This document shows positions 1,441 through 17,265 of a stretch of 17,265 nt of DNA, piece after piece. How positions within the stretch are numbered: position 1 is the first letter of the stretch; every line of letters starts with the position of its first letter. Position numbers and translations under genes: made by a program. Below the pieces are notes generated by a model. That model saw nothing but the letters and a program-made list of their open reading frames with translations. It did not search any database and was not told where the DNA came from. The stretch is from a virus (Duplodnaviria; Heunggongvirae; Uroviricota; Caudoviricetes): IMG/VR virus record IMGVR_UViG_2778261416_000002, positions 1 through 17,265 of that record; one strand, given 5' to 3'.

Positions 1441-1446
1441 CGTTTC

Positions 1447-1533
1447 GCTGAAAAACATAACCCATAAAATGCTAGCTGTACCAGGAACCACCTCCTTAGC
1501 CTGTGTAATCTCCCTTACACGGGCTTATTTTTT
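1447..1533 (+). ncRNA. cyaR: CyaR (RyeE) Hfq-dependent small RNA
   Basis: The sequence gctgaaaaacataacccataaaatgctagctgtaccaggaaccacctccttagcctgtgtaatctcccttacacgggcttatttttt matches the CyaR sRNA as I recall it. It ends in an intrinsic terminator hairpin (cccttacacggg) plus a T-run. Location between yegQ and a P2-like ogr gene is the known context. Confidence 0.85.
1507..1533. repeat. attL: 27-bp P2 attachment core (aatctcccttacacgggcttatttttt) overlapping the 3' end of cyaR
   Basis: Exact 27-bp direct repeat of 16762..16788. It is the reverse complement of the P2 att core as I recall it (AAAAAATAAGCCCGTGTAAGGGAGATT). Confidence 0.8.
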
Positions 1534-1596
1534 ACGCGTAATACAATGAAATAAAAGGATTTATTTCTGGTCACGTCCACACATTGACCACATCGA

Positions 1597-1622
1597 CAAA
1601 AAAGCCCCTCGACTGAGGGGCT
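1597..1622 (-). terminator. Intrinsic terminator downstream of ogr
   Basis: Stem agcccctc/gaggggct (1603..1610 and 1615..1622, loop gact) followed on the minus strand by a T-run (A-run 1597..1602 on plus). Confidence 0.55.
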
Positions 1623-1634
1623 TCCTGTTTGTAA

Positions 1635-1853
1635 TTACATCCACATAATTTGCTGCCCTGACGGCAACGGGTGCGGCCTTACTGCGTGGACTTCTCCCGG
1701 CTTCACGATGTATCTCTGTACCGACTCATAAGTGATGAACGTGGCGCTGCAATTCACGTTCTGACACTGGTGATAACGCTCTTTTGTCGTGTCAGTGATA
1801 TAGCGGCTTGTACGCGCATGTGCGGCATGCTGGCATAAAGGACAATGAAACAT
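1635..1853 (-). CDS. ogr: Late gene transcriptional activator Ogr (zinc-finger)
   Basis: 72-aa product MFHCPLCQHAAHARTSRYITDTTKERYHQCQNVNCSATF... matches P2 Ogr including the Cys4 zinc-binding pattern. The supplied ORF has a 21-codon upstream extension that I trim to the canonical ATG at 1853. Confidence 0.88.
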   Translation of the reverse strand: MFHCPLCQHAAHARTSRYITDTTKERYHQCQNVNCSATFITYESVQRYIVKPGEVHAVRPHPLPSGQQIMWM

Positions 1854-1934
1854 CGCGAGCACCTCTTCCGGTTTTGTTGATGGTGCCATTTTAGTTAATT
1901 TATCCTTATAAAACAAACAGATAAAATAAAAACA

Positions 1935-3098
1935 TCACTCATCATCTTCTGTTTCGTACTCCACATCAGAAAGCCTGACCTCAAGCTCCAAGGACGTCGT
2001 GAAGCCGCTATTATTCAGAAAATGTGTCACCTTAGTGATTGTCCAGTCCTGCTCGTCTATGACGCGCTTAAAGCCTGACACTTTAACCGGTGTTTCCGTG
2101 TAAATATCAGCACGACCGGTAGCCAGACTGATGGAGAACTCCGCAACGCCCCGTTGCAGCTTATCCCACTTCGCCTGAGCGGCGCGCATGGCCTGTGCTT
2201 TCGTGGCATATACCGTGGTCAGTGCAAAAACGTTGTCAGCCTCACCGGCCATGTATTCACCTTCGCGCGCCTCCGGTACTTTTGGCGCTTTCTTCTGCGT
2301 GACTGGTTTCGCTTTCGGGTGCTCCAGTGCGCGCAGGTGTTTTTCTTTCTTTTTGCGTTTCAGTTTTACCTTCTGCTTTTGCGGCTTCGGGTCTTTGGTG
2401 TGTAACCACTTTGCCGTTACGCCGGTGTAAGCTCCACGGTCAGCAATCGCAAAATGATGACGGTCACCGTCGCTGCGGGTGATGGTAATCTGCGGGATTT
2501 TTTTACCGCTGGCCGTCACCCCCTGCCCCGCTTTGAGAAACAGCAGTTTTCCCATTTTTACCGACACCTCACCGCCGTTGCGTTCAGCAAGGCGGGTCAG
2601 GAATTTTGCATCAGACTCCTGCGACTGGTCGATGTGCGGGATTTTAATTCCGGCCAGTGACGGCGCGACACTGGCTTCCAGCCTGTTACGGGAGGCTATC
2701 GCCTCAACAATCGCACCGAGCGTGGTGTCATGCCATGAGCCTTCACGGCGGGAATTGAGCGTCCCGCGAAAATCTGCACTCCGGGCGCGGATGGTGACCA
2801 CATCCGGCGCGCCCCGGTGTTCAACCTCATCAACGGTGAATTTCCCTTTGCATACCAGGGCAAAACCTTTCCAGCCGATATACACCGTCAGGACAGCGCC
2901 ACGAACCGGCAGCCCGACCTGCCCGTCGGCATCGTTCAGTTCAATATCAAGCTGGTCAGCCTCAAAGCCCCGGTTATCCGTCAGGGTCATACTCATCAGA
3001 CGGTCGCTGATATTGCCGGTAATATCCCTGCTGTCGAGCATCAGCATGTAATCCGGCGTCAGCGTACTGCCTGCATCAAATGTCAGTGCATCCAGCAT
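1935..3098 (-). CDS. D: P2 tail protein D (late control gene D family)
   Basis: 387-aa ORF whose sequence and length match P2 gpD. Its ATG overlaps the U stop codon (TAATG) and it lies immediately upstream of ogr as in P2. Confidence 0.88.
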   Translation of the reverse strand: MLDALTFDAGSTLTPDYMLMLDSRDITGNISDRLMSMTLTDNRGFEADQLDIELNDADGQVGLPVRGAVLTVYIGWKGFALVCKGKFTVDEVEHRGAPDVVTIRARSADFRGTLNSRREGSWHDTTLGAIVEAIASRNRLEASVAPSLAGIKIPHIDQSQESDAKFLTRLAERNGGEVSVKMGKLLFLKAGQGVTASGKKIPQITITRSDGDRHHFAIADRGAYTGVTAKWLHTKDPKPQKQKVKLKRKKKEKHLRALEHPKAKPVTQKKAPKVPEAREGEYMAGEADNVFALTTVYATKAQAMRAAQAKWDKLQRGVAEFSISLATGRADIYTETPVKVSGFKRVIDEQDWTITKVTHFLNNSGFTTSLELEVRLSDVEYETEDDE

Positions 3099-3577
3099 TA
3101 TCCCGCCCCCGTCATACCCGTGAATCTGGTCGCCATACTGCCAGCTTTACCGATGAGCGATTCCGCCTGTTTACCGATATCGCCATAAAGCGCGGCCAGT
3201 GATTCATCAACGCGGGTGAGCGACAGCGTAAAATCAATTTTCCGGGGTGTGCCGTCTGCAAAGAAAATACTCCCTGTTTCACTCACCCTGCTGATGACAT
3301 ACATGCCGTAAATCATGCCGATGCCATCCAGCAACGGCCACGCCCGGCCTTCCTCTGCCATCAGCCTGAGCGTGGTCATCGTCAGCTTTCCGCCGGTCAG
3401 TTCGGGATAAAGCACACCGGCAAGCGTGATGTTTTCCTCGCCAACGCCGAGAAACTGGTAGGCATCCCGTTTACCGATACGGGAATTTGACGGCCAGCGA
3501 TAATCTGATTCACGCTGCATGGTCTGGTGTGGCAGCGTCTGGCGCATAAAAACAAACATACCTAACGCGAGCATCAT
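3098..3577 (-). CDS. U: P2 tail protein U
   Basis: 159-aa ORF between the T C-terminus and D, as in P2. Strong Shine-Dalgarno AGGAGGTGA 6 nt upstream of the ATG. Confidence 0.85.
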   Translation of the reverse strand: MMLALGMFVFMRQTLPHQTMQRESDYRWPSNSRIGKRDAYQFLGVGEENITLAGVLYPELTGGKLTMTTLRLMAEEGRAWPLLDGIGMIYGMYVISRVSETGSIFFADGTPRKIDFTLSLTRVDESLAALYGDIGKQAESLIGKAGSMATRFTGMTGAG

Positions 3578-3591
3578 TTTTCGTCACCTCC

Positions 3592-4911
3592 TTAACCGTC
3601 ATGCATCATGCTGGCACGGGCGCGCGCACGTTTATCCCGCTCGTATTTTTCGAGCGCATCCTGTAACTGGCGGTCAAGCTGTGTCCCCGGCGCAGTACCA
3701 CCCGTCAGGCTGATGTGATATTCGTTTTTACTCTGGTCCACATAAGAGCGGCCAGCCGGTGCCGTAACCGGCTGATAAGCCTGATAGTCTGCATAAGAGC
3801 TGGTCGCCGGAATATAACCACCGCTGCCATACGTGGCGGCTTGAGTTCTGGCGGCGGTCTGGTCAAGTGTGTCTGACTCTTTGTTGATAACACCGAGTTT
3901 TTCCAGTACCCAGTCAATTCCGCTGCGCAGTTTGTTGAACGCATTAAGCGGCAGCATCAGCGCGTCAGCCAGTGCCTGCCCGAACATGACGCCAGTATCA
4001 CGGCAACGGTTCAGGGTGTCCTGGGTGGCTTTGACCGGGGCAATCAGGTTTTTAAACCACTGCCACGCGGCCTGTAACTTTTCGCCCAGCCAGTCAAACA
4101 CCGGCTTAAGTGGCGTGAACAGTTCCCCCACCGGCGCAAATGCCGCTTTCAGCCCTTCCATCACACCGCCAAAGAATGCGCTGACAGGCTCCCAGTATTT
4201 ACGGATAAGCAACGCCCCGGCGACAATGGCGGCCACCACGGCCACAATCAGGTTGTTGGTCGCATCCATCACCAGTGCGTCAAGGCTGGCATAATCACCG
4301 CCCTTACCCACGCGGATAACCTCAGAGGTCGTGTGACCTTCCTCGTCAGTGACCTTGCTCATCACGCGCGCCGGGGCTTCATTGCGGTATTTCTGCAGCC
4401 AGCCGACCGCCACATCCTGCAGCATCGGATTGCTGCTGCGGTCAGAGGTTTCGGCACGCCTCACGCCGTTAAAACCGGCCATGATGAAATCAAGGGACTG
4501 GCGTTTGATAATGGCGTTACGGACACGGAGCTGGAAATCCTGATAACGCGCCCACAGGTCCAGCGTTTTGTAGCGGATATAAAAATCGAAGTTAATCTGG
4601 TCGCATTCGTACTTGTTTGACGCCAGCTTCGAGAAGTCCTTCGGCTGACGCTCGGTGCCACCGGCGGTGTCGGTGGTGCTGGCGATGGAGCCGGTGACAC
4701 CGATGCCAATTTTTTCCCCTTTCATTTCGCTGACCGGCACAATGTTGATGCGGGTCAGAAAGTCAGAGGACTCCTGCATGGTGTTCATCAGGGTCTGGGT
4801 GACCGACGGTTCAACGGTGAATTTTTTCGACACATCACCGGCGTCGATGCCGTTCAGTTCGGCAACACGGGACAGGTAGGCATTAAATTTAAAGCGGGTT
4901 TCCTGGCGCAT
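3592..4911 (-). CDS. Chimeric ORF: N-terminal ~222 aa of major capsid protein gpN fused in frame to C-terminal ~217 aa of tail tape measure protein gpT (deletion derivative)
   Basis: The N-terminus MRQETRFKFNAYLSRVAELNG... up to ...DALVMDATNNLI matches P2 gpN as I recall it, but the ORF is 439 aa where gpN is 357 aa. The C-terminal part has hydrophobic helices (VAVVAAIVAGALLI...) and ends immediately upstream of U, the position of the T 3' end. gpO lies directly upstream. The junction is near nt 4246. Confidence 0.7.
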   Translation of the reverse strand: MRQETRFKFNAYLSRVAELNGIDAGDVSKKFTVEPSVTQTLMNTMQESSDFLTRINIVPVSEMKGEKIGIGVTGSIASTTDTAGGTERQPKDFSKLASNKYECDQINFDFYIRYKTLDLWARYQDFQLRVRNAIIKRQSLDFIMAGFNGVRRAETSDRSSNPMLQDVAVGWLQKYRNEAPARVMSKVTDEEGHTTSEVIRVGKGGDYASLDALVMDATNNLIVAVVAAIVAGALLIRKYWEPVSAFFGGVMEGLKAAFAPVGELFTPLKPVFDWLGEKLQAAWQWFKNLIAPVKATQDTLNRCRDTGVMFGQALADALMLPLNAFNKLRSGIDWVLEKLGVINKESDTLDQTAARTQAATYGSGGYIPATSSYADYQAYQPVTAPAGRSYVDQSKNEYHISLTGGTAPGTQLDRQLQDALEKYERDKRARARASMMHDG

Positions 4912-4969
4912 AGTTTTTCCTGAAATTAAGGGTTAATCGTGAAGGTTTTCCCGGACTGACTGACGCCGG

Positions 4970-5824
4970 TCAGCAGTTCGTCATCAGGGCGTCACCGCCA
5001 CCACCGTTGGCCTTGCTGCGGCGCTGCTGGGTCAGACTTTCGGTGTGGTCGAGACTGTTTTTCAGGCGGGTGAATGCCTGGCTGGTTTCATCCGCCCTGT
5101 CAGTCACATCCTGCTTAAGGGCGGAAAAAGCGGTTTCCATCTCAGCGAGGCGCTGCTCAGTGGCGCTCAGTTTTTCCTGCACATGTTCAGCAACAGCGGT
5201 CACCGCTTCATGCACGTCATTCAGACGGGCGTCATCGCTGGCCTGTTTGCGGCCAAAAATGGACTTCACCTTTTCGGTCAGGGCGGTGAACACGGTTTCA
5301 GGCAGGTCTTCAAATTCCAGCTCAACGGGCGTTGCCACTGAAATCAGGTTTTCAGGGCTTAATTTGAAGCGGTTCAGGGGGTTGTGTTTTGCCGTGCGGC
5401 AGAATTCCAGGTATTCCGTGCCGAGGCTTGCCGGGTCATCGGTGACGGCCAGACCCACCAGATAACATTTGCCGGTATTGGCAAAGTTCGGCTGAATTTC
5501 CATTGAGGTATAGACCTTCTGCGCGGCCTTGTTCATCGCGATAAGGTCATCGGTCGGGGTGATTTTCGCAAACAGCGCCCATTTGCCTTTCAGCGCCGAA
5601 TCATCGTCAATCTTTTCGGCCTTCAGTTCGGCCACATCGCCATAACGCTTAAAAATACCGTCAGGCAGGATGCCTCGCAGATGTTCCAGGTTAATGCGGC
5701 AACCATAGACTCGCGGGTCAAAGGTTTCGGCCATTTCCTGAATATCCTGCGCACTGATGACACGCCCGTCACAGGTGTCACCCTCTACGCCGATACGAAA
5801 GAATTTTGAGACTTTTTTTGCCAT
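4970..5824 (-). CDS. O: Capsid scaffolding protein gpO
   Basis: 284-aa product beginning MAKKVSKFFRIGVEGDTCDGRV... matches P2 gpO. The supplied ORF extends 22 codons further upstream; I trim to the canonical ATG at 5824. Confidence 0.88.
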   Translation of the reverse strand: MAKKVSKFFRIGVEGDTCDGRVISAQDIQEMAETFDPRVYGCRINLEHLRGILPDGIFKRYGDVAELKAEKIDDDSALKGKWALFAKITPTDDLIAMNKAAQKVYTSMEIQPNFANTGKCYLVGLAVTDDPASLGTEYLEFCRTAKHNPLNRFKLSPENLISVATPVELEFEDLPETVFTALTEKVKSIFGRKQASDDARLNDVHEAVTAVAEHVQEKLSATEQRLAEMETAFSALKQDVTDRADETSQAFTRLKNSLDHTESLTQQRRSKANGGGGDALMTNC

Positions 5825-5997
5825 TGTCAGGAGTCCTGAATAGTGATTAGAGGAGTCACATGTCGGCATCAGTTTCCCGACGATGCGCATCCTCCGCCAT
5901 CAGTCCCGGATGGCTTATCACTGACACAACAGCACCTTAGCGAATCGCGGGGCGCGACTCAGTAGCCTTGCCGTGTATTCATCACGGCGAGGTATTC

Positions 5998-7770
5998 ATG
6001 ACCATCACCACAGACACCACTCTTTTACACGACCCGCGTCGTCAGGCGGCGCTGCTGTACTGGCAGGGATTTTCCGTGCCGCAGATTGCCGCCATGTTGC
6101 AGATGAAACGCCCGACGGTGCAGAGCTGGAAACAGCGCGACGGCTGGGACAGCGTTGCCCCCATCAGCCGTGTCGAAATGAGTCTGGAAGCGCGGCTGAC
6201 CCAGCTCATCATCAAACCGCAGAAAACCGGCGGTGACTTCAAGGAAATTGACCTGCTCGGACGCCAGATTGAACGACTGGCACGGGTCAACCGTTACAGT
6301 CAGACCGGCAACGAGGCAGACCTTAATCCGAACGTCGCTAACCGCAACAAAGGCGGGCGGCGCAAACCGAAAAAGAATTTTTTCAGTGACGAGGCCATCG
6401 AAAAGCTGGAGCAGATTTTCTTTGAGCAGTCTTTCGAATATCAGTTGCACTGGTATCGCGCCGGGCTTGAGCACCGCATCCGCGATATCCTGAAATCCCG
6501 CCAGATTGGCGCGACGTTTTATTTTTCCCGCGAGGCGCTGCTGCGCGCCCTGAAAACAGGTCATAACCAGATTTTTCTGTCGGCCAGTAAAACGCAGGCG
6601 TATGTGTTCCGCGAATACATCATCGCCTTTGCCCGGCTGGTTGACGTTGACCTGACCGGTGACCCGATTGTCCTGGGCAATAACGGCGCAAAACTGATTT
6701 TTCTCGGCACCAACTCCAACACCGCGCAGAGCCATAACGGCGACCTGTACGTCGATGAGATTTTCTGGATCCCGAATTTTCAGGTACTGCGTAAGGTGGC
6801 ATCAGGTATGGCCTCACAGAGTCACCTGCGCTCGACCTATTTCTCCACCCCGTCCACGCTGGCGCACGACGCCTACCCGTTCTGGTCGGGTGAACTGTTC
6901 AACCGGGGACGCGCCAGCGCCGCCGAACGCGTGGAAATCGACGTCAGTCATAATGCCCTTGCCGGTGGGCTTCTCTGTGCGGACGGTCAGTGGCGGCAGA
7001 TTGTCACCATTGAGGACGCCCTGAAAGGCGGCTGCACACTGTTCGACATTGAGCAGCTCAAACGCGAAAACAGCGCCGACGATTTTAAAAACCTGTTCAT
7101 GTGTGAATTTGTTGACGACAAGGCGTCGGTATTCCCGTTCGAGGAGCTGCAACGCTGCATGGTCGACACGCTGGAAGAATGGGAAGACTATGCGCCGTTT
7201 GCCGCCAATCCGTTCGGCTCCCGCCCGGTATGGATTGGTTACGACCCGTCACACCGTGGCGACAGCGCCGGATGCGTGGTGCTGGCACCGCCGGTGGTGG
7301 CCGGTGGCAAATTCAGAATACTTGAGCGTCACCAGTGGAAAGGCATGGACTTTGCCACCCAGGCGGAATCCATCCGCAAACTCACCGAAAAATACAACGT
7401 CGAATACATCGGAATTGATGCCACCGGCCTCGGTGTCGGCGTGTTCCAGCTCGTGCGCTCGTTCTATCCCGCCGCGCGCGACATCCGCTACACGCCGGAA
7501 ATGAAAACCGCAATGGTGCTCAAGGCAAAAGACGTTATCCGCCGTGGCTGTCTGGAATATGACGTCAGCGCCACCGACATCACCAGCTCGTTTATGGCTA
7601 TCCGCAAGACCATGACCAGCAGCGGACGCAGCGCCACCTATGAGGCCAGCCGCAGCGAGGAAGCCAGCCACGCCGACCTCGCATGGGCGACCATGCACGC
7701 CCTGTTAAATGAGCCACTCACCGCCGGTATCAGCACCCCGCTGACATCCACCATTCTGGAGTTTTACTGA
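5998..7770 (+). CDS. P: Terminase ATPase (large) subunit gpP
   Basis: 590-aa product beginning MTITTDTTLLHDPRRQAALLYWQGFSVPQIA... matches P2 gpP. The supplied ORF begins at a TTG at 5968; the ATG at 5998 has a GAGG Shine-Dalgarno 5 nt upstream. Divergent from O, as in P2. Confidence 0.88.
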   Translation: MTITTDTTLLHDPRRQAALLYWQGFSVPQIAAMLQMKRPTVQSWKQRDGWDSVAPISRVEMSLEARLTQLIIKPQKTGGDFKEIDLLGRQIERLARVNRYSQTGNEADLNPNVANRNKGGRRKPKKNFFSDEAIEKLEQIFFEQSFEYQLHWYRAGLEHRIRDILKSRQIGATFYFSREALLRALKTGHNQIFLSASKTQAYVFREYIIAFARLVDVDLTGDPIVLGNNGAKLIFLGTNSNTAQSHNGDLYVDEIFWIPNFQVLRKVASGMASQSHLRSTYFSTPSTLAHDAYPFWSGELFNRGRASAAERVEIDVSHNALAGGLLCADGQWRQIVTIEDALKGGCTLFDIEQLKRENSADDFKNLFMCEFVDDKASVFPFEELQRCMVDTLEEWEDYAPFAANPFGSRPVWIGYDPSHRGDSAGCVVLAPPVVAGGKFRILERHQWKGMDFATQAESIRKLTEKYNVEYIGIDATGLGVGVFQLVRSFYPAARDIRYTPEMKTAMVLKAKDVIRRGCLEYDVSATDITSSFMAIRKTMTSSGRSATYEASRSEEASHADLAWATMHALLNEPLTAGISTPLTSTILEFY

Positions 7771-8804
7771 TGAGCAAGAAAAAAGGGAAAACACCGCAAC
7801 CTGCGGCAAAAAAAATGACCGCCAGCGCCCTGAAAATGGAGGCATTCACCTTTGGTGAGCCGGTGCCGGTACTCGACCGCCGTGACATTCTGGATTACGT
7901 CGAGTGCATCAGTAACGGCAGATGGTATGAGCCACCGGTCAGCTTTACCGGTCTGGCAAAAAGCCTGCGTGCTGCCGTGCATCACAGCTCACCGATTTAC
8001 GTTAAACGCAATATTCTGGCCTCGACATTTATCCCGCATCCGTGGCTTTCTCAGCAGGATTTTAGCCGCTTTGTACTGGATTTTCTGGTGTTCGGTAATG
8101 CGTTTCTGGAAAAGCGTTACAGCACCACCGGTAAGGTCATCAGACTGGAAACCTCACCGGCAAAATATACCCGCCGTGGTGTGGAAGAGGATGTTTACTG
8201 GTGGGTGCCGTCCTTCAACGAGCCGACACCTTTCACGCCCGGCTCCGTGTTTCACCTGCTGGAGCCGGATATTAATCAGGAGCTGTACGGCCTGCCGGAA
8301 TATCTCAGCGCCCTTAATTCTGCCTGGCTGAATGAGTCGGCCACGCTGTTCCGCCGCAAGTATTACGAAAACGGCGCACATGCCGGATACATCATGTACG
8401 TCACTGATGCCGTGCAGGATCGCAACGATATCGAAATGCTTCGCGAAAACATGGTTAAGTCGAAAGGCCGCAACAACTTTAAAAACCTGTTTCTCTATGC
8501 CCCGCAGGGGAAAGCTGACGGCATTAAAATTATCCCGCTCAGTGAAGTGGCAACGAAGGACGATTTTTTTAATATCAAAAAAGCCAGCGCCGCTGACCTG
8601 CTGGACGCACACCGCATCCCCTTTCAGTTGATGGGCGGCAAGCCGGAGAACGTCGGGTCGCTGGGTGATATTGAGAAAGTGGCAAAGGTCTTTGTCCGCA
8701 ATGAGCTTATCCCGTTACAGGACAGGATCCGCGAGATAAACGGCTGGCTCGGTCAGGAGGTCATCCGCTTTAAAAACTACTCACTGGACACTGACAACGG
8801 CTGA
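7770..8804 (+). CDS. Q: Portal (capsid portal vertex) protein gpQ
   Basis: 344-aa product matching P2 gpQ in sequence and length. Its start overlaps the P stop (TGATG). It is transcribed toward cos, as in P2. Confidence 0.88.
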   Translation: MSKKKGKTPQPAAKKMTASALKMEAFTFGEPVPVLDRRDILDYVECISNGRWYEPPVSFTGLAKSLRAAVHHSSPIYVKRNILASTFIPHPWLSQQDFSRFVLDFLVFGNAFLEKRYSTTGKVIRLETSPAKYTRRGVEEDVYWWVPSFNEPTPFTPGSVFHLLEPDINQELYGLPEYLSALNSAWLNESATLFRRKYYENGAHAGYIMYVTDAVQDRNDIEMLRENMVKSKGRNNFKNLFLYAPQGKADGIKIIPLSEVATKDDFFNIKKASAADLLDAHRIPFQLMGGKPENVGSLGDIEKVAKVFVRNELIPLQDRIREINGWLGQEVIRFKNYSLDTDNG

Positions 8805-8808
8805 ACAT

Positions 8809-8830
8809 CGCCGCCTGCGGGCGGCTTTTT
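8809..8830 (+). terminator. Intrinsic terminator downstream of Q
   Basis: GC stem gccgcc/ggcggc with loop tgcg, followed by tttttt (8825..8830). Confidence 0.6.
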
Positions 8831-8965
8831 TACACCCCGCCCTCACACGCTCACCACCGCACAAAACATCCCGCAGACACACCAACGCCCCGGCGAACAA
8901 TCTAAACGCCATCACGACGCGCTCAGACGCTGAAAAAATAAAATCAGCACTACCGCCAGCGCGCA

Positions 8966-8984
8966 GTGCTTTCCCCGCCTCGCC
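8966..8984. other. cos site: 19-nt cohesive-end sequence of P2 (gtgctttccccgcctcgcc, reverse complement of GGCGAGGCGGGGAAAGCAC)
   Basis: Exact match to the P2 19-nt cohesive end as I recall it, in the expected position just past the 3' end of Q. Confidence 0.8.
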
Positions 8985-9008
8985 CGCCCGCTTCATGAGA
9001 CGGTTTTA

Positions 9009-10721
9009 ATGCAGTTGCATTATGTCCCGCTCCTCAGTGCTGCGCTCCATCCTGATTACAAAAACCGTTATCAAAAACACATGCAAATAGACGCAGTCAA
9101 ATGCGCTACCGCCTCTCGCAATACCTTCAATTTCATGATAAAAAACATCATCCCTAACAAGAGCATTATCCTCATGAAAAAAGTATATGAACTAACCAGT
9201 GAAGAAGCACTGTCATATTTTCTTCGCCATGACTCCTACACAACCTTAGAATTACCGGCTTATATTAATTTCACCACATTATTAAATGATATTAATTCAT
9301 CTATCCATAACAAAAAAATTAAAATTGAACCAACCGCCAAGGAGCTGATGGGTAAAGATATCAATTATGAGGTGCTTGTCAGTAAAGATGGTCTATATAG
9401 CTGGCGTAGGATAACACTTATCAATCCCCTTTATTATGTCTACTTCTGTAGAAAAATCACAGCACCAGCAACCTGGGAAATCATAACAGAAAAATTCAAA
9501 TCTTTTGAATCAAACGACCTTTTTACATGTTCAAGCATCCCCGTCAGAAAAGACAACTCGTCAAACATTGCTGCATCTGTAATGAATTGGTGGGAAGATT
9601 TTGAACAAAAAAGCCTTGCCCTTGCTCTTGAATACGAATTCATGTTCAGCACTGACATCTCAAACTTCTACCCATCAATATATACTCATAGTTTTGAATG
9701 GGTATTCATATCAAAAGAAGAGGCAAAGAAGAAAAAAAGCAAAAATAACCCAGGAGGATTAATTGACAGCCACATTCAAATGATGATGAACAACCAGACA
9801 AATGGTATTCCACTCGGCAGCACATTGATGGATACATTTGCTGAGCTTATCTTGGGTCAAATCGATATAGAATTAAGAAAAAAAACTAACGAACTCAAAA
9901 TAATAAACTACAAGGTAGTACGCTATCGTGATGATTACCGGATCTTCTCTAATAGCAAAGATGATTTAGACATAATATCAAAATGTTTAGTCAATGTATT
10001 GGGCGATTTTGGTTTAGATCTAAACTCAAAAAAAACTGAACTATATGAAGACATCATACTTCATTCGTTGAAACAAGCTAAAAAAGACTACATCAAAGAA
10101 AAAAGACATAAGTCACTCCAGAAAATGCTCTATTCAATATATTTATTTTCACTTAAACATCCAAACTCGAAAACAACCGTTAGATATCTAAATGATTTTC
10201 TTAGGAATTTATTTAAGCGAAAGACAATTAAAGATAACGGCCAACAGGTTGATGCTATGCTTGGTATTATTTCAAGCATCATGGCAAAAAACCCTACAAC
10301 GTACCCAGTAGGAACGGCAATTTTCTCAAAACTCCTCAGTTTTCTTTATGGTGATGACACCCAAAAAAAATTAACAAAGCTAGAACAACTCCATAAAAAA
10401 CTGGATAAACAACCCAATACAGAAATGCTTGACATATGGTTTCAGCGAACTCAAGCAAAAATAAACCTAGAGTGGGATAAATCTTATAAGTCAGCTCTAT
10501 GCGTCCGTATAAATGATGAACTCACAAAAGAGAAAACATTTTCTGTAAATAATTTATGGAATATTGACTGGATCCAAGGAAAAGAAACAAGCCCCAATAA
10601 AGCCAAAATATTATCCTTGCTAAGAAAAACAAAAATCGTTGACACAGATAAATTTGATAAAATGGATGAAAATATAACACCTGAAGAAGTTAATCTATTC
10701 TTTAAAGAGCACAGCAATTAA
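9009..10721 (+). CDS. Reverse transcriptase, stand-alone defence-associated type (Abi-P2 / UG-Abi-like) with a C-terminal helical extension
   Basis: RT motif A FSTDISNFYPSI (about 9645..9680), motif B NGIPLGSTLMDTFAELIL (9801..9854) and motif C VRYRDDY (9918..9938). The ORF is strongly AT-rich compared with flanking phage genes and sits in the cos-to-A variable locus. The true start may be an internal ATG at 9135 or 9174; the latter has aagag about 10 nt upstream. Confidence 0.8.
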   Translation: MQLHYVPLLSAALHPDYKNRYQKHMQIDAVKCATASRNTFNFMIKNIIPNKSIILMKKVYELTSEEALSYFLRHDSYTTLELPAYINFTTLLNDINSSIHNKKIKIEPTAKELMGKDINYEVLVSKDGLYSWRRITLINPLYYVYFCRKITAPATWEIITEKFKSFESNDLFTCSSIPVRKDNSSNIAASVMNWWEDFEQKSLALALEYEFMFSTDISNFYPSIYTHSFEWVFISKEEAKKKKSKNNPGGLIDSHIQMMMNNQTNGIPLGSTLMDTFAELILGQIDIELRKKTNELKIINYKVVRYRDDYRIFSNSKDDLDIISKCLVNVLGDFGLDLNSKKTELYEDIILHSLKQAKKDYIKEKRHKSLQKMLYSIYLFSLKHPNSKTTVRYLNDFLRNLFKRKTIKDNGQQVDAMLGIISSIMAKNPTTYPVGTAIFSKLLSFLYGDDTQKKLTKLEQLHKKLDKQPNTEMLDIWFQRTQAKINLEWDKSYKSALCVRINDELTKEKTFSVNNLWNIDWIQGKETSPNKAKILSLLRKTKIVDTDKFDKMDENITPEEVNLFFKEHSN

Positions 10722-10730
10722 TATCCCAAA

Positions 10731-10760
10731 GCCATGTTAGTAACATAACATGGCTTTTTT
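10731..10760 (+). terminator. Intrinsic terminator downstream of the RT gene (possibly bidirectional with convergent gene A)
   Basis: Hairpin gccatgtt-agtaacat-aacatggc followed by tttttt (10755..10760), 10 nt after the RT stop codon. Confidence 0.6.
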
Positions 10761-10824
10761 AAATCACTCATTATCAGTTATCAAGAACGAACATAACATT
10801 CTATTCCGAGGAGTTAAATTATCA

Positions 10825-13110
10825 TTAGATCCACTTAATATCCGTTATATCCTCCAGCCACTCCTCATCTACCAGATAGGTGAATTTTTTCCCGTCATAA
10901 TTTACGGTTGCTCCACGCGCCAGCGCCTCAAGCTCCCATCGCTGCGGCCTGATACCGTTCTGAGCGAGGTCAACGCGGATACGGGTAATTTGCATTCGTT
11001 CCGACCGGGTCAGTCTGGCCGATGGTGCCATTTCATACTGTTTTAACGGGCTTCCGTTTCTCTGCTGACGATTTGGTGTTCTCAGTCCGCATTTTAATGC
11101 ACCTCTGAGCGCCCTCACAACCTCCGGGTCACTCCATTCGATAACACCGTCATCAACCAGATTAAGCACTGCTGCGGCGTGTTCAGAAGGTGTGGGAGCC
11201 GGTAACGAAGTATCACCACCGGTGAGCTTTCCACAGTTATTGACAGGACTCCGAGGCGCGGCGATGCCGCTTTTTAAAGTCAAAGGCTCAACGACCGGCA
11301 CTTTCGGAACAATGCGCCAGTCCGTCGTTCTGGTGATATGAATATGACGCGCGCCGAGATGCGGCGCGTAAATGCCGACCACTCTCTCGACTTCTTCCTC
11401 GTACTCGTTAACTTCATCCGACGGACTACGGGCGACCCTGACAGTCTGACAATCGCGCGGGACATTTGCCCCACCCTGCGCGCTGATATACAGCGCAAAA
11501 TCGCCACTGTCTGCGGCAGCGCGTGCAGCCTCGACGCGTTCGTCAAACTCATCAGCAATGCTGACGCCGCGAGGTAATTTGCGTAGTTCACGGTAAGCCC
11601 CCATTGTCGGCAGGCCAACCGTTTTAAATTGCGGAATGCGCCACGTTGACGCCCATGCGGTAACAGCCGCGGCAGTGTCTTTCAGCGGCCTGCCGGTGTC
11701 GTTATCGAGCTGACCATCCAGTGCATAGCCGTCGATGTTTTTTGAAATGTATTTCGCGATATACCCCGCAGCACCGCCCCGGTTAAGGTGTTTTGCCTGA
11801 AAACGGTTTCGCGCGGCTCCTCTTTCGTCGCCATCCTCTTTGAGCGCATAGCGACGCATGATTTCGATAATCTGGTTACGCTGGCGCGGATTACAAAAAA
11901 GCATCATATGCCAGTGCGGCGTTCCGTCGTGGTGTGGCTCGACGACACGCAAACCGTAGACCTGTAAATCATTATCCTTGAATGCCGTGCGCATCAGGCT
12001 CCAGATACGGCAGAGATAACGCTGCGCATCCTTTGGATTAAATGCCTCATCGTTCCAGCCGTGATTTAGCTGGACGGTTTTACTTTCGCCTTTTCTGACC
12101 TGACGTGTCGGGTGATACTTTGACGGCGCGGTCAGCGTGATAAACATCCCCACATCACCCTCTGCTGCGGCGTAACGCTCAATACCGGCAATGGTGTTCA
12201 TCAGCTCCATCCGGCGAATTTCAGGATTAGAAATACTGCCCATCACCTTACTGATAAGGTCGATGCGCTCGCCGGTTTCCCTGTTTTCAAGGTCACACGA
12301 TTTAAGAAATTCCAGATTTGCCTGGCGGCGCGCACGCACATCACGAATGGCATGTTTACTGGCATAAGGAGAACGGTCTTTATTGACCTCCCCGACAGCT
12401 ATCAGTAACGCTTCATGCCAGCGCATACGCTGGCCTTTAAGCTGATGAGTCCACCACTCATCGTTAAACAGACGGGCAATGGCAGAATATGCCTGCCTCG
12501 TGGTCATCTGTCCTTTACGGTATTTTTTCCAGTAGAGCGGGGAAATATTGAAAGCACGTGCAGCGCCAGCAACATGACCATACAGGTGAGCCTGCGCCTC
12601 ATCCGTAAACAGCGATTCTTTTTCACCATGCGCATCAACCCATGCATCACAGAGTTCCTCATACATCATGAAAAGCTGCGATGAGATACGGGCGGCAAAC
12701 TTTTTCAGCTCCTTGTCATTCATTCCCGGCAGGCGCGCATAGTGATCACGCTCTGCCAGAAACAGCAACGACGCGTCGGTGTTCATTTCATGGCGCTGAT
12801 TCACACGCTCAATGCGCGGCCATAAACGACGCTGAAAAGTAGATGTGAGGAAATAAAACCCGTGCACCGGGCTTTTATTGCGCCGGATGTAGTCATAGCG
12901 TGAAGTAAACAGCGAGCGCAAAAAGTAAGGCAGGCGGTTAATCGTGGATAAAACACCTTGCACCTGACGCATCTCGTCACGTGTAAGAGGTCTTTCGCGC
13001 CCGACAGCCTCGCGTGGCGCGTTCCATGCATAAGCACCGGTAAACGCCTTACCGGTGCCTGCGGTAAATGCTGACGGAGGGACAAAACGCCCGGAGGCTT
13101 TAACGGCCAT
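10825..13110 (-). CDS. A: Replication initiation protein gpA (rolling-circle endonuclease)
   Basis: 761-aa product beginning MAVKASGRFVPPSAFTAG... matches P2 gpA in length and N-terminus. It contains the HxH-type motif region (PHWHMMLF) and tyrosine-rich region typical of the family. The supplied ORF begins at an upstream TTG; I trim to the ATG at 13110. Confidence 0.88.
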   Translation of the reverse strand: MAVKASGRFVPPSAFTAGTGKAFTGAYAWNAPREAVGRERPLTRDEMRQVQGVLSTINRLPYFLRSLFTSRYDYIRRNKSPVHGFYFLTSTFQRRLWPRIERVNQRHEMNTDASLLFLAERDHYARLPGMNDKELKKFAARISSQLFMMYEELCDAWVDAHGEKESLFTDEAQAHLYGHVAGAARAFNISPLYWKKYRKGQMTTRQAYSAIARLFNDEWWTHQLKGQRMRWHEALLIAVGEVNKDRSPYASKHAIRDVRARRQANLEFLKSCDLENRETGERIDLISKVMGSISNPEIRRMELMNTIAGIERYAAAEGDVGMFITLTAPSKYHPTRQVRKGESKTVQLNHGWNDEAFNPKDAQRYLCRIWSLMRTAFKDNDLQVYGLRVVEPHHDGTPHWHMMLFCNPRQRNQIIEIMRRYALKEDGDERGAARNRFQAKHLNRGGAAGYIAKYISKNIDGYALDGQLDNDTGRPLKDTAAAVTAWASTWRIPQFKTVGLPTMGAYRELRKLPRGVSIADEFDERVEAARAAADSGDFALYISAQGGANVPRDCQTVRVARSPSDEVNEYEEEVERVVGIYAPHLGARHIHITRTTDWRIVPKVPVVEPLTLKSGIAAPRSPVNNCGKLTGGDTSLPAPTPSEHAAAVLNLVDDGVIEWSDPEVVRALRGALKCGLRTPNRQQRNGSPLKQYEMAPSARLTRSERMQITRIRVDLAQNGIRPQRWELEALARGATVNYDGKKFTYLVDEEWLEDITDIKWI

Positions 13111-13375
13111 ATGAGCCAAAAGCCTCTGAACAACGCTTGCTGAGTTGCTCAACCTGCGCGTTTAAATCAGCAAAAGATTTTGCGCTTCCGGTCAGAATAT
13201 CGTGATGCATCAGGCCGGAAACGAGCTGGCCTAATTTCGGGTAATAACCAACCACCGCCAGCCATTCCTGACCGGCGTTTTTACCGCTTTCCGCTCTCTT
13301 TTTCTCGTGGAGAATAAACTGAAAGCTGTCACTGGTAACGACATAACGTTCGCCAATTTCAATACGAATACTCAT
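13100..13375 (-). CDS. P2 Orf83-like small early protein (function unknown)
   Basis: 91-aa ORF in the orf83 position immediately upstream of A. Its ATG overlaps the preceding stop (ATGA), with a GGAGAA Shine-Dalgarno. Confidence 0.65.
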   Translation of the reverse strand: MSIRIEIGERYVVTSDSFQFILHEKKRAESGKNAGQEWLAVVGYYPKLGQLVSGLMHHDILTGSAKSFADLNAQVEQLSKRCSEAFGSYGR

Positions 13376-13596
13376 GCCGTTCTCCGGTAATGTTTGTTTT
13401 TTGCTTCAAAGACTGACTGACAGGAAACACAACGCGTGGCTGACGGATAAGCCGCACGACGGGCAGCAGGTATTGGCGCGTCACACTCTTCGCAAACCAG
13501 CGCAGAAACACCGCAATGTTTTACCCTTGCCGCGTTAATCTGGCGCTCCAGTAATTCAGCCTGTTGTTCCTGAATAAAATCCACGTTGTCCGGCAT
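13372..13596 (-). CDS. P2 Orf82-like C4 zinc-finger protein (TraR/DksA family)
   Basis: 74-aa ORF with a CxxC...CxxC pattern (CEECDAPIPAARR...CVSCQ) characteristic of TraR/DksA-type zinc fingers, in the orf82 position. Confidence 0.7.
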   Translation of the reverse strand: MPDNVDFIQEQQAELLERQINAARVKHCGVSALVCEECDAPIPAARRAAYPSATRCVSCQSVFEAKNKHYRRTA

Positions 13597-13898
13597 TACC
13601 AGCTCCTTTTGTCGTTCAGCTTCTTAAATTCATCAGCGCAATAACTGGCGAGTTCTGTCGTTAATTTTGTCAGTTCATCCACTGAGGAAATTTGCTTGTG
13701 GAATACAGCGCGTTTAACAAGTAAATTGACCACATCAGACAGGAGGTTTAATTCACTCTGATAAATCGCGATAACAGATTCAGTTATTTCGCGCTTCTCT
13801 TTATCAATACCAAGTTGAATAAGAGACAAATCACCATTTTTCATAACGGCGATTTTTAAGGCGTTATTCAGTAATACAACCGAACGAGAACAGGACAT
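13596..13898 (-). CDS. P2 Orf81-like small early protein (function unknown)
   Basis: 100-aa ORF from the ATG at 13898, which overlaps the orf80 stop (ATGA). The supplied ORF starts one codon earlier at a TTG. Confidence 0.65.
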   Translation of the reverse strand: MSCSRSVVLLNNALKIAVMKNGDLSLIQLGIDKEKREITESVIAIYQSELNLLSDVVNLLVKRAVFHKQISSVDELTKLTTELASYCADEFKKLNDKRSW

Positions 13899-14122
13899 CA
13901 AAGCACCTCCCCGCGAGACAATCCGATATTGTGAAATTTTTCCGACTCCTGACTGAGCAGCTCAACTATCTCCACGCGGGATAACTCCGCCTTTGTGATG
14001 TGGCGAATCATGGCGTCAAGATGAGAAGAAAAGCGCGTCGCAGCGTCGGCCTGTGCTTCGGTTCTGGCCTGTTGCAGCAGTAATGCGTATTTACCGCACT
14101 GATTTTCAGAAACTGTATGCAT
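13898..14122 (-). CDS. P2 Orf80-like small early protein (function unknown)
   Basis: 74-aa ORF with a GGAGAAAG Shine-Dalgarno upstream of the ATG, in the early operon between B and orf81. Confidence 0.65.
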
Positions 14123-14185
14123 GACTTTCTCCAGGCAAAAAGAAGCCCCGCACGATTAAGTGCGTTAAAAACTCTGGTTAATTAC

Positions 14186-14686
14186 TTAATGCAGATATTG
14201 CTCTGGTTTTACCGACGTCAGAATTGTCGGTGCATACTCAAACAGGCTGAATAATTCACGTAATGCACGGAATAAAGCATCACGCCAGTAACATGACTCT
14301 TCATTAATTCGCCAGTATGGCTGGTTAAATTCTTTTTCAGTCAATCCGGCATGCATAAATAAAGTACGACGCTGACTGACTGTTAAAAAACTAATATATG
14401 CATACTCACTTGCACCGACCTGACGACGTTTTGAGAATGCCCCACGCAATTCATCAATTGCACATACCAGTCGTTCACGTTCGACGTCGTTCATTTCTTC
14501 AAAACGCATCGTTGCGTGACGCTGTTTTAACTGCGCATGAAAGCAAACTGTTAGCCGTTCGCGCTCCATCATCTGATTATAATAATCACATGTATCCTGC
14601 CAGCGAGGAACGGCAAGATGCTTACCAATTATCCGGCGCATAGCTGCTGGCTGTTTTTCAACGAGATTGAGCGTCATCACTGTCAT
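14186..14686 (-). CDS. B: Replication protein gpB (helicase loader-like)
   Basis: 166-aa product MTVMTLNLVEKQPAAMRRIIGKHLAVPRWQDTCDYYNQMMERERL... matches P2 gpB. A GGAGGG Shine-Dalgarno is optimally spaced for the ATG at 14686 rather than the one at 14692. Confidence 0.85.
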   Translation of the reverse strand: MTVMTLNLVEKQPAAMRRIIGKHLAVPRWQDTCDYYNQMMERERLTVCFHAQLKQRHATMRFEEMNDVERERLVCAIDELRGAFSKRRQVGASEYAYISFLTVSQRRTLFMHAGLTEKEFNQPYWRINEESCYWRDALFRALRELFSLFEYAPTILTSVKPEQYLH

Positions 14687-14853
14687 TTCCATACCCTCCG
14701 GCTTTTCAGAAAGGTCAGAGCCTTTTTTAACGGACTCTGTTTTTTGGTGCGGATAATGATTCCCTTACGCCCCTTACCGTGGGTGATGGTGAAGTCAATC
14801 GCCCTGGGGCTTTCGTTACGCAGTAACTGAGCAATACAACGAGGCTCATTCAT
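14683..14853 (-). CDS. P2 Orf78-like small protein (function unknown)
   Basis: 56-aa ORF with a perfect AAGGAGA Shine-Dalgarno 5 nt upstream of the ATG at 14853. Its stop overlaps the B start (ATGA). The supplied ORF begins at an upstream GTG. Confidence 0.6.
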   Translation of the reverse strand: MNEPRCIAQLLRNESPRAIDFTITHGKGRKGIIIRTKKQSPLKKALTFLKSRRVWK

Positions 14854-14863
14854 ACGGTTCTCC

Positions 14864-15139
14864 TTAACGTGGTTCACCGAGACCTAACCACATCAACCAG
14901 CCGTCACGAATCTCTTTAGGTCGGCTTTCATAAGCCAGTTTTAGTCCGTTATTCCATGCCGGAAGGTATACCCAATATTCACCTGCACGACCTGAAGCTG
15001 ATTGTGGATCGGTCATATCAATTACAGGCAGCTTTCCTTTATCGATCATCCGACGAACCGCTCCTGTCGATTTTCCTATTAGTTTTGCGAACTCCTGATA
15101 AGGAATCGCATCAGTCATGAGTGTTACTTGCTTGCTCAT
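14864..15139 (-). CDS. cox: Cox protein (excisionase and repressor of Pc; directionality factor)
   Basis: 91-aa product MSKQVTLMTDAIPYQEFAKLIGKSTGAVRRMIDKGKLPVIDMTD... matches P2 Cox. It is divergent from C and first gene of the early operon. Confidence 0.88.
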   Translation of the reverse strand: MSKQVTLMTDAIPYQEFAKLIGKSTGAVRRMIDKGKLPVIDMTDPQSASGRAGEYWVYLPAWNNGLKLAYESRPKEIRDGWLMWLGLGEPR

Positions 15140-15149
15140 GTCGTCCTCT

Positions 15150-15260
15150 AGCCCTCATGAATTGCGTTTAATGTCTTATAATGCCTTTTAGTGCCCACAT
15201 CCAAGCACTAAACAATCTACATCTAAACTAAATACTATTGAGATCTAAACACCATGTCAA
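15150..15260. promoter_or_regulatory. Immunity switch region: candidate Pc (-10 tataat 15177..15182, plus strand), candidate Pe (-35 ttgaca and -10 tagtat on minus strand, plus-strand coordinates 15255..15260 and 15233..15238), and two 8-bp direct-repeat C operators atctaaac (15221..15228, 15243..15250)
   Basis: Hexamers are read directly from the sequence; the Pe spacer is 16 bp. The two direct repeats are 22 bp centre to centre and flank the Pe -10, as described for P2 C repressor operators O1/O2. Predicted Pe and Pc transcripts would converge and overlap. Confidence 0.55.
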
Positions 15261-15553
15261 ACACGATAAGCGAGAAGATAGTCTTAATGCGAAAATCAGA
15301 GTATTTGAGCAGACAACAACTTGCTGATTTAACAGGGGTTCCGTATGGCACGCTGAGTTACTATGAAAGTGGTCGTTCAACACCTCCAACAGATGTCATG
15401 ATGAACATCCTGCAGACCCCACAATTCACCAAATACACTTTATGGTTCATGACCAATCAGATCGCTCCTGAGTCCGGGCAAATTGCGCCCGCTCTCGCAC
15501 ACTTTGGGCAAAACGAAACAACGTCGCCCCACTCCGGTCAAAAGACTGGTTAA
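15254..15553 (+). CDS. C: Immunity repressor C
   Basis: 99-aa product MSNTISEKIVLMRKSEYLSRQQLADLTGVPYGTLSYYESGRSTPP... matches P2 C repressor, with the helix-turn-helix region QQLADLTGVPYGTLSYYE. Confidence 0.88.
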   Translation: MSNTISEKIVLMRKSEYLSRQQLADLTGVPYGTLSYYESGRSTPPTDVMMNILQTPQFTKYTLWFMTNQIAPESGQIAPALAHFGQNETTSPHSGQKTG

Positions 15554-15668
15554 CAATTCATCGTGAATATATTCATCACAAGTGCCTACTATTGGTGGCT
15601 AAATTTCAGCCACCACGAAAAAAGCGATTAGTAGTCGCAAAAAAACACACCACTCGGAGGGTTTTCTG

Positions 15669-16682
15669 ATGGCAATCAAAAAACTCGATGATGGTCGATA
15701 TGAAGTGGACATCCGCCCTACTGGACGTAATGGAAAACGCATCCGTAGGAAGTTTGATAAGAAAAGCGAAGCTGTCGCTTTCGAGAAATACACGTTGTAC
15801 AACCACCACAATAAAGAATGGCTATCAAAACCAACAGACAAGCGACGTCTGTCGGAGCTGACACAGATCTGGTGGGATTTAAAGGGTAAACACGAAGAGC
15901 ATGGGAAATCTAATCTTGGAAAAATTGAAATCTTCACAAAAATAACGAATGACCCATGCGCATTTCAAATTACGAAATCGCTTATCAGCCAGTACTGCGC
16001 CACCCGAAGAAGTCAGGGTATTAAACCTTCGAGTATCAATCGTGATTTAACATGTATTAGCGGCATGTTTACAGCCCTGATTGAAGCGGAGTTATTCTTT
16101 GGTGAGCACCCTATCAGAGGGACAAAAAGGCTTAAGGAGGAAAAACCAGACACAGGCTATCTCACGCAGGAAGAAATTGCCTTACTGCTTGCTGCTCTTG
16201 ACGGCGACAACAAAAAGATTGCGATTCTTTGCCTGAGTACTGGAGCACGTTGGGGAGAAGCAGCTCGTTTGAAAGCAGAAAATATCATCCATAACCGCGT
16301 CACGTTTGTTAAAACGAAAACAAACAAACCACGCACCGTCCCGATCTCAGAGGCTGTTGCCAAAATGATCGCGGATAACAAACGAGGTTTTTTATTCCCT
16401 GATGCTGATTACCCTCGCTTCAGACGAACAATGAAAGCAATAAAACCGGATTTGCCAATGGGGCAAGCCACACATGCACTAAGGCACAGCTTTGCCACTC
16501 ATTTCATGATTAATGGAGGAAGTATTATCACGCTACAACGGATACTAGGTCACACGCGGATTGAGCAAACTATGGTTTACGCTCATTTTGCGCCAGAGTA
16601 CCTTCAGGACGCCATTTCTCTTAATCCGCTAAGAGGTGGTACTGAGGCCGAGAGTGTCCACACAGTGTCCACAGTAGAGTAA
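15669..16682 (+). CDS. int: Tyrosine site-specific integrase
   Basis: 337-aa product matching P2 Int. The C-terminal catalytic region has HALRHSFATHF and LGHTRIEQTMVYAHF (R, H-x-x-R and Y). GGAGGG Shine-Dalgarno upstream. It lies adjacent to attR. Confidence 0.88.
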   Translation: MAIKKLDDGRYEVDIRPTGRNGKRIRRKFDKKSEAVAFEKYTLYNHHNKEWLSKPTDKRRLSELTQIWWDLKGKHEEHGKSNLGKIEIFTKITNDPCAFQITKSLISQYCATRRSQGIKPSSINRDLTCISGMFTALIEAELFFGEHPIRGTKRLKEEKPDTGYLTQEEIALLLAALDGDNKKIAILCLSTGARWGEAARLKAENIIHNRVTFVKTKTNKPRTVPISEAVAKMIADNKRGFLFPDADYPRFRRTMKAIKPDLPMGQATHALRHSFATHFMINGGSIITLQRILGHTRIEQTMVYAHFAPEYLQDAISLNPLRGGTEAESVHTVSTVE

Positions 16683-16761
16683 CGTTTAAGGGCTTTCAGT
16701 GGTAATTTATGCCGCTCAAACCCGCATTGTACCGTTGAAAGCCCCTACTGGTGACACCCTA

Positions 16762-16788
16762 AATCTCCCTTACACGGGCTTATTTTTT
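16762..16788. repeat. attR: second copy of the 27-bp P2 attachment core
   Basis: Exact repeat of 1507..1533; this copy is followed by one extra T. It lies 80 bp downstream of int. Confidence 0.8.
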
Positions 16789-16947
16789 TATGCATAAGCC
16801 CTATCTCTGGTAACCGTCTTCCATTGACCACATCGATAGAATCCTCCTTCATAGCACGATGCCTTTCACTTATCGGCATCGTGCTCCCACAGGTTCCGGC
16901 TACGCACAGCCAGAACGCGCATATTTGACGCTTACCAAAAAATATTC

Positions 16948-17265
16948 TCACTCTCCACATTTGAATGTCAGACGAGCGACACCATGTAATCCTACACCTT
17001 CTGTCTTCAGCTCAACTATTTGCATTTTTTTGCCCTGAGTAACACAGAAATGAGTTGCATCATTTTTTACTATATTTTCTGCACCAGATATTCTGCCCCT
17101 GGCTAAAGAAGCTTCGGCTTCGGTGTAGTATTGGTTATCGAGTTTACGCTGAATATTACTTTTATATGCAAGACCAAATTTACCGATACTTGTCTCATCA
17201 TTATGCACAGCACAACCAGACATAATAAAAATACTAATTAATGATATAGCAGCTATCTTTTTCAT
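16948..17265 (-). CDS. yegR: Small lipoprotein YegR-like (signal peptide with lipobox, function unknown)
   Basis: Complete 105-aa ORF whose ATG is the last three bases of the window. The N-terminus MKKIAAISLISIFIMSGC has a signal peptide and lipobox cysteine. Position after the cyaR-linked P2-like element matches E. coli yegR. Confidence 0.7.
   Translation of the reverse strand: MKKIAAISLISIFIMSGCAVHNDETSIGKFGLAYKSNIQRKLDNQYYTEAEASLARGRISGAENIVKNDATHFCVTQGKKMQIVELKTEGVGLHGVARLTFKCGE

Follow-up and report, generated by a model that had tools for sequence, protein, structure and literature searches.

A probable vestige of an ancient P2-type attachment arm beside the cyaR terminator core of Escherichia coli

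The host DNA that borders a defective P2-like prophage at the cyaR locus of Escherichia coli carries, directly beyond the attR core, a short sequence that resembles the attachment arm of the phage. With a probability of roughly three in four, this sequence (16789 to ~16839 of the window, by which is meant the whole 17,265-nucleotide stretch of DNA that was analysed) was left behind, as a vestige of its ogr-proximal att arm, by an ancient P2-type element that inserted in the cyaR terminator of an E. coli ancestor. The reading is built on direct observations: the similarity to the phage arm, its presence throughout the species, an insertion specific to the E. coli lineage, a second copy of the core at the far end of that insertion, and the recurrence of comparable arrangements in other taxa.

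At its left end the window opens with yegQ (1-1362), and at its right it reaches the start of yegR (16948-17265, on the minus strand). The terminator of cyaR is the 27-bp P2 core, which in the window is identical to the annotated attP core of P2 (NC_001895), and two copies of this core flank a 15.2-kb P2-like prophage with ogr at its left end and int at its right. The relevant features are the following.

1445-1530, plus strand: cyaR (RyeE) sRNA gene (Rfam RF00112, 100.7 bits, full length)
1507-1533, plus strand: attL copy of the 27-bp P2 core, AATCTCCCTTACACGGGCTTATTTTTT (exact direct repeat of 16762-16788)
1532-1565, no strand: IHF site of the resident phage P arm (position from the P2 RefSeq annotation)
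1569-1596, no strand: Int arm-type binding site of the resident phage P arm, GGTCACGTCCACACATTGACCACATCGA (P2 annotation 'Int, P arm')
1602-1623, minus strand: ogr / F-operon intrinsic terminator hairpin (P2 annotation carried over; sequence located)
1635-1853, minus strand: ogr late-gene activator of the resident defective P2-like prophage (ORF list, P2 annotation, translation)
15669-16682, plus strand: P2-type integrase gene, int (ORF list; colinear with P2 int)
16648-16674, no strand: Int arm-type sites of the int-side arm, called the P' arm in the P2 record (P2 annotation carried over)
16762-16788, plus strand: attR copy of the 27-bp core (exact direct repeat of 1507-1533)
16789-16839, no strand: probable vestigial P arm in the host flank (alignment statistics, P-arm multiple alignment, species-wide presence, invariant block)
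16853-16885, no strand: host hairpin, AGCACGATGCC / GGCATCGTGCT (from the sequence)
16948-17265, minus strand: yegR, orphan gene for a lipoprotein of 105 aa, within the insert specific to E. coli (matching genomes carry the annotation YegR)

The resident prophage (1534-16761) is defective. Its genes from the left are ogr, D, U, a 439-aa fusion ORF (3592-4911, with the junction near 4235), O, P (terminase) and Q (portal); between U and N, the prophage lacks every tail, baseplate, lysis and head-completion gene. The N-terminal half of the fusion ORF is the P2 major capsid protein, matching positions 1-210 of the 327 in the Pfam profile Phage_cap_P2. The deletion junction of the prophage was found in none of 5426 complete E. 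coli genomes. The variable hotspot that separates Q from the replication gene A contains a 570-aa reverse transcriptase (9009-10721, plus strand) that matches the AbiP2 (DRT-class) defence model with E = 1e-161.

On the ogr side of attP, the P2 RefSeq record lists, in order, the core, an IHF site, the 'Int, P arm' site, the ogr terminator and ogr. Since P2 and the window align without indels here, these features can be transferred directly to 1532-1565, 1569-1596 and 1602-1623 of the window. The Int site of the P arm contains two direct repeats, CGTCCACA at 1574 and TGACCACA at 1585, while the int-side arm has its own motif, TGTCCACA, at 16655 and 16666. The arm consensus of P2-type phages has been given as tgTGGaCa (PMC3448106).

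The sequence-only reading of this DNA had drawn attention to an identical 15-mer inside and outside the prophage. The 15-mer, CATTGACCACATCGA, does occur in both places, at 1582-1596 in the phage and at 16822-16836 in the host flank, the latter one base below the originally reported 16823-16837. The phage copy lies within the annotated Int site, so that the similarity of the host flank covers the arm-binding site of the integrase. The proposed pairwise alignment of the regions beyond the two cores was run as a local alignment of 1534-1700 against 16789-16960, and it gave a score of 38, as compared with 15.8 +/- 2.2 in 2000 shuffles (maximum 27). The match is gapped and 36 nt long, with TATTTCTGGTCA-CGTCCACACATTGACCACATCGA in the phage facing TATCTCTGGTAACCGTCTTC-CATTGACCACATCGA in the host. 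It is colinear with the core, and the host copy sits 15 nt nearer to it, with a spacer of 33 nt versus 48 nt in the phage. Even when the 15-mer is left out, the host spacer remains above shuffled sequence in its likeness to the phage (P ~0.01-0.02 for the window and other short alleles).

The shortness of the match, and nothing else, could lead one to regard the resemblance as fortuitous, or to suppose that the phage captured its P arm from the E. coli flank. Such an explanation is barely credible, however, given that none of the 2000 shuffles reached the observed score, that P2-like prophages of genera lacking the E. coli flank have a conserved P arm, complete with IHF site and paired repeats, and that it is the host copy that is degenerate.

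The likeness to the phage is confined to 16789 to ~16839. The interval originally proposed as an arm copy, 16789-16947, was therefore too long, for 16840-16947 consists of the host hairpin and the 3' flank of yegR and has no phage similarity. The putative vestige was included in a multiple alignment together with P arms from 9 other taxa that have P2-like prophages at cyaR. It begins at 16789, directly beside the core at 16762-16788, just as a P2 P arm would, and its first bases beyond the core are TATGCATAAGCC, where the phage has ACGCGTAATACA. The segment corresponding to the 15-mer is the best-conserved part of the P arms in cyaR-site P2-like prophages of Citrobacter, Trabulsiella, Enterobacter, Scandinavium and others. 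The second repeat of the vestige, TGACCACA, is intact at 16825-16832, while the first, CGTCTTCC at 16815-16822, is degenerate and agrees with tgTGGaCa at 4/8 positions; a P2 P arm has two repeats, and only one is intact here. Also missing from the allele in the window is the GAAATAAAAGGATTTATTTC block of the IHF site, part of which is kept in rare long alleles. With the IHF site missing and one repeat dead, the vestige is probably no longer functional.

Beyond the vestige, the host hairpin at 16853-16885 occupies the position that the ogr terminator has in the phage arm. It has no T-run and was not scored as an intrinsic terminator, its polymorphisms among E. coli are not compensatory, and it may fall within the 3' end of yegR. 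A 71-aa ORF (16745-16960, minus strand) runs across the attR core, the vestige and the hairpin; it is almost certainly no gene, since its 3' end passes through the core into prophage DNA and is missing at unoccupied sites. The junction of core and host flank, 16775-16802, contains an inverted repeat, GGGCTTAT...ATAAGCCC, that encloses the palindrome TTATGCATAA; it is made up of the rightmost core bases and the first bases of the host, and could be a B' core-type site or a footprint of recombination. A variant allele of this repeat, TTACGCGTAA (seen in KTa008 and in 4/114 attR flanks), has two bases altered with the palindrome kept, and then matches the post-core sequence of the phage, ACGCGTAA.

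The distribution of the flank bears directly on its age. Of 5426 complete E. coli genomes, 5402 contain 16789-17265, with identities of 90-100%. When 1234-1533 was fused to 16789-17088 to imitate an empty site, the resulting sequence proved contiguous in most genomes, and one of them (NZ_CP024127) matched it at 100%. Comparison with such empty-site strains, which had been suggested at the outset, thus places the vestige directly after cyaR, at unoccupied sites, in most of the genomes, and for this reason the arm-like sequence must be considered part of the ordinary E. coli attB rather than a peculiarity of one strain.

According to the sequence-only reading, a P2-like prophage had occupied the site earlier and shrunk to a short arm before the present phage integrated into a regenerated core. 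The outgroups described below support a relic, so the proposal holds in kind; in age and extent it does not. A recent occupant of this strain's lineage would fit the geometry, and K-12 provides an example of such decay at this very site. Nevertheless, a near-identical or identical flank in 5402 of the 5426 genomes, at thousands of unoccupied sites and with a perfect empty-site match in one, makes a recent, strain-level leftover highly improbable. The presence of the flank unchanged in strains that lack a P2-like element had been named beforehand as a finding that would count against the proposal. Formally, this is what was found, yet the observation cannot separate an ancient, species-wide relic from host DNA.

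Allelic variation within the species provides a second line of evidence. In ~150 genomes, unoccupied sites included, a long allele carries 12 extra bases, GTGCATAAACCATAGAGACGGATTGATCCCAGGTGA, and a second long form, ATGCATAAGCTGTAAATACGGATTGATCCCTGGTCA, comes from the flanks of IMG/VR prophages. With the 15-mer excluded, the spacer of the first long allele resembles the phage P arm with P = 0.0004, while the second does so with P <5e-5 (z = 5.1, 33 identities), its 44-nt host spacer being set against the 48-nt phage spacer. The long-allele spacers align with the phage P arm including the region of the IHF site, and such homology across the whole arm argues for descent rather than for a convergent binding motif. 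To judge from these sequences, the common allele appears to have lost ~12 nt.

Another means by which the likeness could have been preserved is selection, with the arm-like sequence serving as a functional host-side Int arm-type site that, for example, aids the preference of P2 for locI or modulates excision at attR. The block ACCGTCTTCCATTGACCACATCGATAGAAT, which contains the one intact repeat, is invariant in 10 diverse E. coli while both sides of it vary, and its 15/15 identity to the phage stands within an otherwise diverged arm. The invariance cannot be taken as evidence of selection, however, because the same intergenic alignment has other invariant runs of similar length close by. Moreover, the partner repeat has degenerated and the common allele has lost its IHF site. 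Nothing of the kind is present in the outgroup attB sites that P2-like prophages use, and identity in the most conserved part of the P arm would be expected from descent alone. A maintained host site therefore seems unlikely. The sequence-only reading had offered Int arm-type sites as an alternative to a relic; its observation stands insofar as the 15-mer lies within the annotated Int site of P2, but the host sequence would then be arm-type by descent, and the two proposals are not true rivals.

Alternatively, the host flank might be unrelated to the phage and have acquired, in B', P-arm bases copied by gene conversion or by imprecise excision, as footprints of modern phages. Some E. coli do have TTACGCGTAAGCCC in place of TTATGCATAAGCCC, and these are the first 8 post-core bases of the phage (locus L100; 4/114 attR flanks). 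As a general explanation this is very unlikely, since the vestige differs from all sampled modern P arms, having a characteristic degenerate repeat and indels of its own, the long and short alleles make up a host-specific series, and both the second core and the insertion relative to outgroups would be left unexplained.

The insertion became apparent when outgroup loci from 80 other species were anchored on YegQ. In ~50/79 other Enterobacteriaceae species, yegS begins 75-118 nt after the core and yegR is absent, and in Escherichia sp. E1V33 the core is followed by GCCTCACGACTTTCATCCTGTTCTGAC and then yegS, again with no yegR. In E. coli, by contrast, the distance from cyaR to yegS is ~880 nt, and the B' sequence CGACTTTCATCCTGTTCTGAC resumes only ~0.8 kb beyond the core. 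The E. coli block is therefore an insertion, given the short, yegR-less interval in E1V33 and so many other species. Its timing is loosely bounded by an outgroup sample without E. fergusonii and the named cryptic clades. The insert is AT-rich (GC 30-37% versus ~52% in yegQ and yegS) and consists of the arm vestige, the hairpin, yegR and a spacer, with a degenerate second core at its end. The remnant is thus more than the short arm first envisaged, as the vestige forms only the left end of an E. coli-specific block that includes yegR and a second core.

The second core, AATCCTCCATACTTGAACTGACTTTTT, lies just before CGACTTTCATCCTGTTCTGAC and ends the insert ~290 nt past the end of the window. 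It matches the core at 18/27 positions (19/27 in some strains), so that the insert has core direct repeats at both ends, the left one perfect (27/27) and the right one degenerate (18-19/27). It is the top match in the 408-nt spacer, where a match that good would arise anywhere with P = 0.013. Its similarity starts exactly at the left edge of the core and runs on into B', and it stands 87 nt before yegS, as compared with 86 nt for the true core in E1V33. Considering that an 18/27 match to the core also occurs by chance elsewhere in the 17-kb window, it is this exact register that carries the evidence for the second core.

No phage genes or pseudogenes are recognisable in the insert, and the arm vestige is its only recognisably phage-derived part. 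A local alignment of the yegR-yegS spacer to 16600-16761, in search of remains of int or of the int-side arm, was not significant (P = 0.24), and blastn of the spacer against 50,697 phage records returned a single record, which contains the host flank. Similarly, a vestige-like arm was found in no extant phage, as all 114 IMG/VR matches are E. coli attR flanks. YegR is essentially limited to E. coli and Shigella at this locus. Among phages it is found only in records that include the E. coli host flank (ON470606, AY639599), and the PHROG match of YegR most likely shares this origin. A role for yegR as P2 cargo draws no support from its diverged homologues, which at 46-83% identity occur in unrelated chromosomal or IS-rich contexts and not beside P2-like att sites.

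The region around yegR has also changed in individual strains. In some E. coli (for example ERP001 and Nissle-type genomes), an AT-rich insertion of ~170 bp separates CCAAAAAA from TATTCTCAC just downstream of the yegR stop, corresponding to ~16937/16938 of the window and to 1000-1230 of the ERP001 locus (L096). In E. coli FDAARGOS_1077 (L095, 2500-2660), most of yegR is deleted, from the post-hairpin region into the 5' end of the gene, and the arm vestige and the degenerate second core are retained.

An insert with a second core 78-88 nt before yegS recurs in other genera and in E. albertii. Second core copies of 23/27 occur in Enterobacter nematophilus and E. pasteurii, and one of 19/27, together with a P arm, in strain BS0013; in another Enterobacter and in a Citrobacter, inserts of 1.6-2.7 kb are preceded by P arms with no ogr. 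In E. albertii NBRC 107761 (L004, 5534-8902), there is an independent remnant at the same site, with a 25/27 second core 88 nt before yegS; its P arm stops after the first arm-type repeat and gives way to ~3.3 kb of very AT-rich DNA with transposase-like (IS-like) fragments. Loci assigned to Enterobacter spp. (L002, L062, L067, L070, L075 and L077) have in common a ~550-nt insert between cyaR and yegS, and at least one of them has a weak second core (16/27) 79 nt before yegS. One of these, L002, is oddly labelled Enterobacter hormaechei, even though both its YegQ and its cyaR match E. coli with 100% identity.

On the preferred reading of an ancient relic, the history of the locus would have begun with the entry of a P2-type element into the cyaR terminator of an E. 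coli ancestor. This element would then have decayed to the ~0.8-kb AT-rich block of arm vestige, hairpin, yegR, spacer and decayed attR core that became fixed in the species. That it was P2-like is suggested by the arm vestige and the core repeats; yegR may have arrived with it or at a later time. The left (attL) core would have stayed intact because it is the CyaR terminator and is needed by CyaR, and would now serve as the P2 attB ('locI'). Rather than being regenerated, as had been supposed, the left copy was thus simply retained. Later P2-like phages, including the defective one in the window, would have integrated in the retained core, and recombination within it would yield an attR of the form P'-core-(old vestigial P arm). 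The earlier suggestion that the present phage integrated at the core of an older, decayed element agrees with what is seen, namely an attR flanked by the old arm vestige.

If this history is correct, the textbook P2 attB in E. coli would not be pristine host DNA but the retained end of an older element, and at least three generations of P2-type occupancy would be layered at one locus: the vestige with yegR, the K-12 ogrK remnant and the defective prophage of the window. The orphan gene yegR would gain a plausible horizontal origin. The cyaR terminator proves to be a recurrent, layered integration hotspot across the Enterobacteriaceae. For prophage-boundary tools and annotators, the lesson is that similarity beyond an attR core does not mark the end of a prophage. 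It is also conceivable, although doubtful on the sequences at hand, that locI as the attL of an ancient P2-type element still has a B' arm-type site that binds Int and tunes locI. Were this so, the B' arm site might add to the strong preference for locI, or might turn attR into a weakly attP-like partner, with effects on excision or tandem lysogeny. Taken as a series, the natural alleles (the clean E1V33-type site, the short allele, the long alleles and the K-12 site with a full P arm) would then act as a graded test of the amount of arm DNA that an attB can bear. In any event, natural attB variants offer a test of how core-adjacent arm sites affect site choice by tyrosine integrases.

The vestige shares with the P arm of P2 its core-adjacent position and orientation, the intact TGACCACA, the flanking TCTGGT.AC and CATCGA, and a hairpin at the place of the ogr terminator. 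It differs in its degenerate first repeat, in a spacer shorter by 15 nt, in the lack of an IHF site in the common allele, and in being followed by yegR, whereas the P2 arm is followed by ogr.

Much like the locus in the window, the K-12 locI remnant (ogrK and a truncated D, yegZ) involves the same cyaR terminator core, in the same orientation, and an inside-out decay of the prophage. The K-12 remnant itself has an intact attL core with its P arm and a partial attR core at its end. It is young and strain-restricted, with a P arm and ogr nearly identical to those of the prophage in the window. The comparison with K-12 that had been proposed gave the order cyaR-core, full P arm, ogrK, truncated D, partial core, vestige and yegR, such that the ogrK-D' remnant ends in the partial core and the vestige follows directly. 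The vestige is therefore separate from the K-12 remnant and to its right, and is older, species-fixed and without a phage gene; likewise, the flank in the window has neither ogrK nor the truncated D gene. Both the K-12 ogrK remnant and the defective 15-kb prophage of the window are later layers. In E. coli C, locI is the site that P2 prefers, yet P2 avoids its K-12 counterpart, in which a full P arm lies beside the core. If this is right, the vestige is evidently tolerated.

In a search of the full-text literature, no paper was found to connect yegR or the attB flank with a P2 arm, and the vestige is an apparently undescribed, new example of a familiar phenomenon, that of layered att-site remnants. 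In tandem or nested prophages and islands that share one att site, a new element likewise uses the kept core of an older one, and its attR comes to be flanked by old arm DNA. Unlike those nested systems, the older element here has shrunk to a species-wide block of ~0.8 kb, and the 'hybrid' site is effectively the wild-type E. coli attB.
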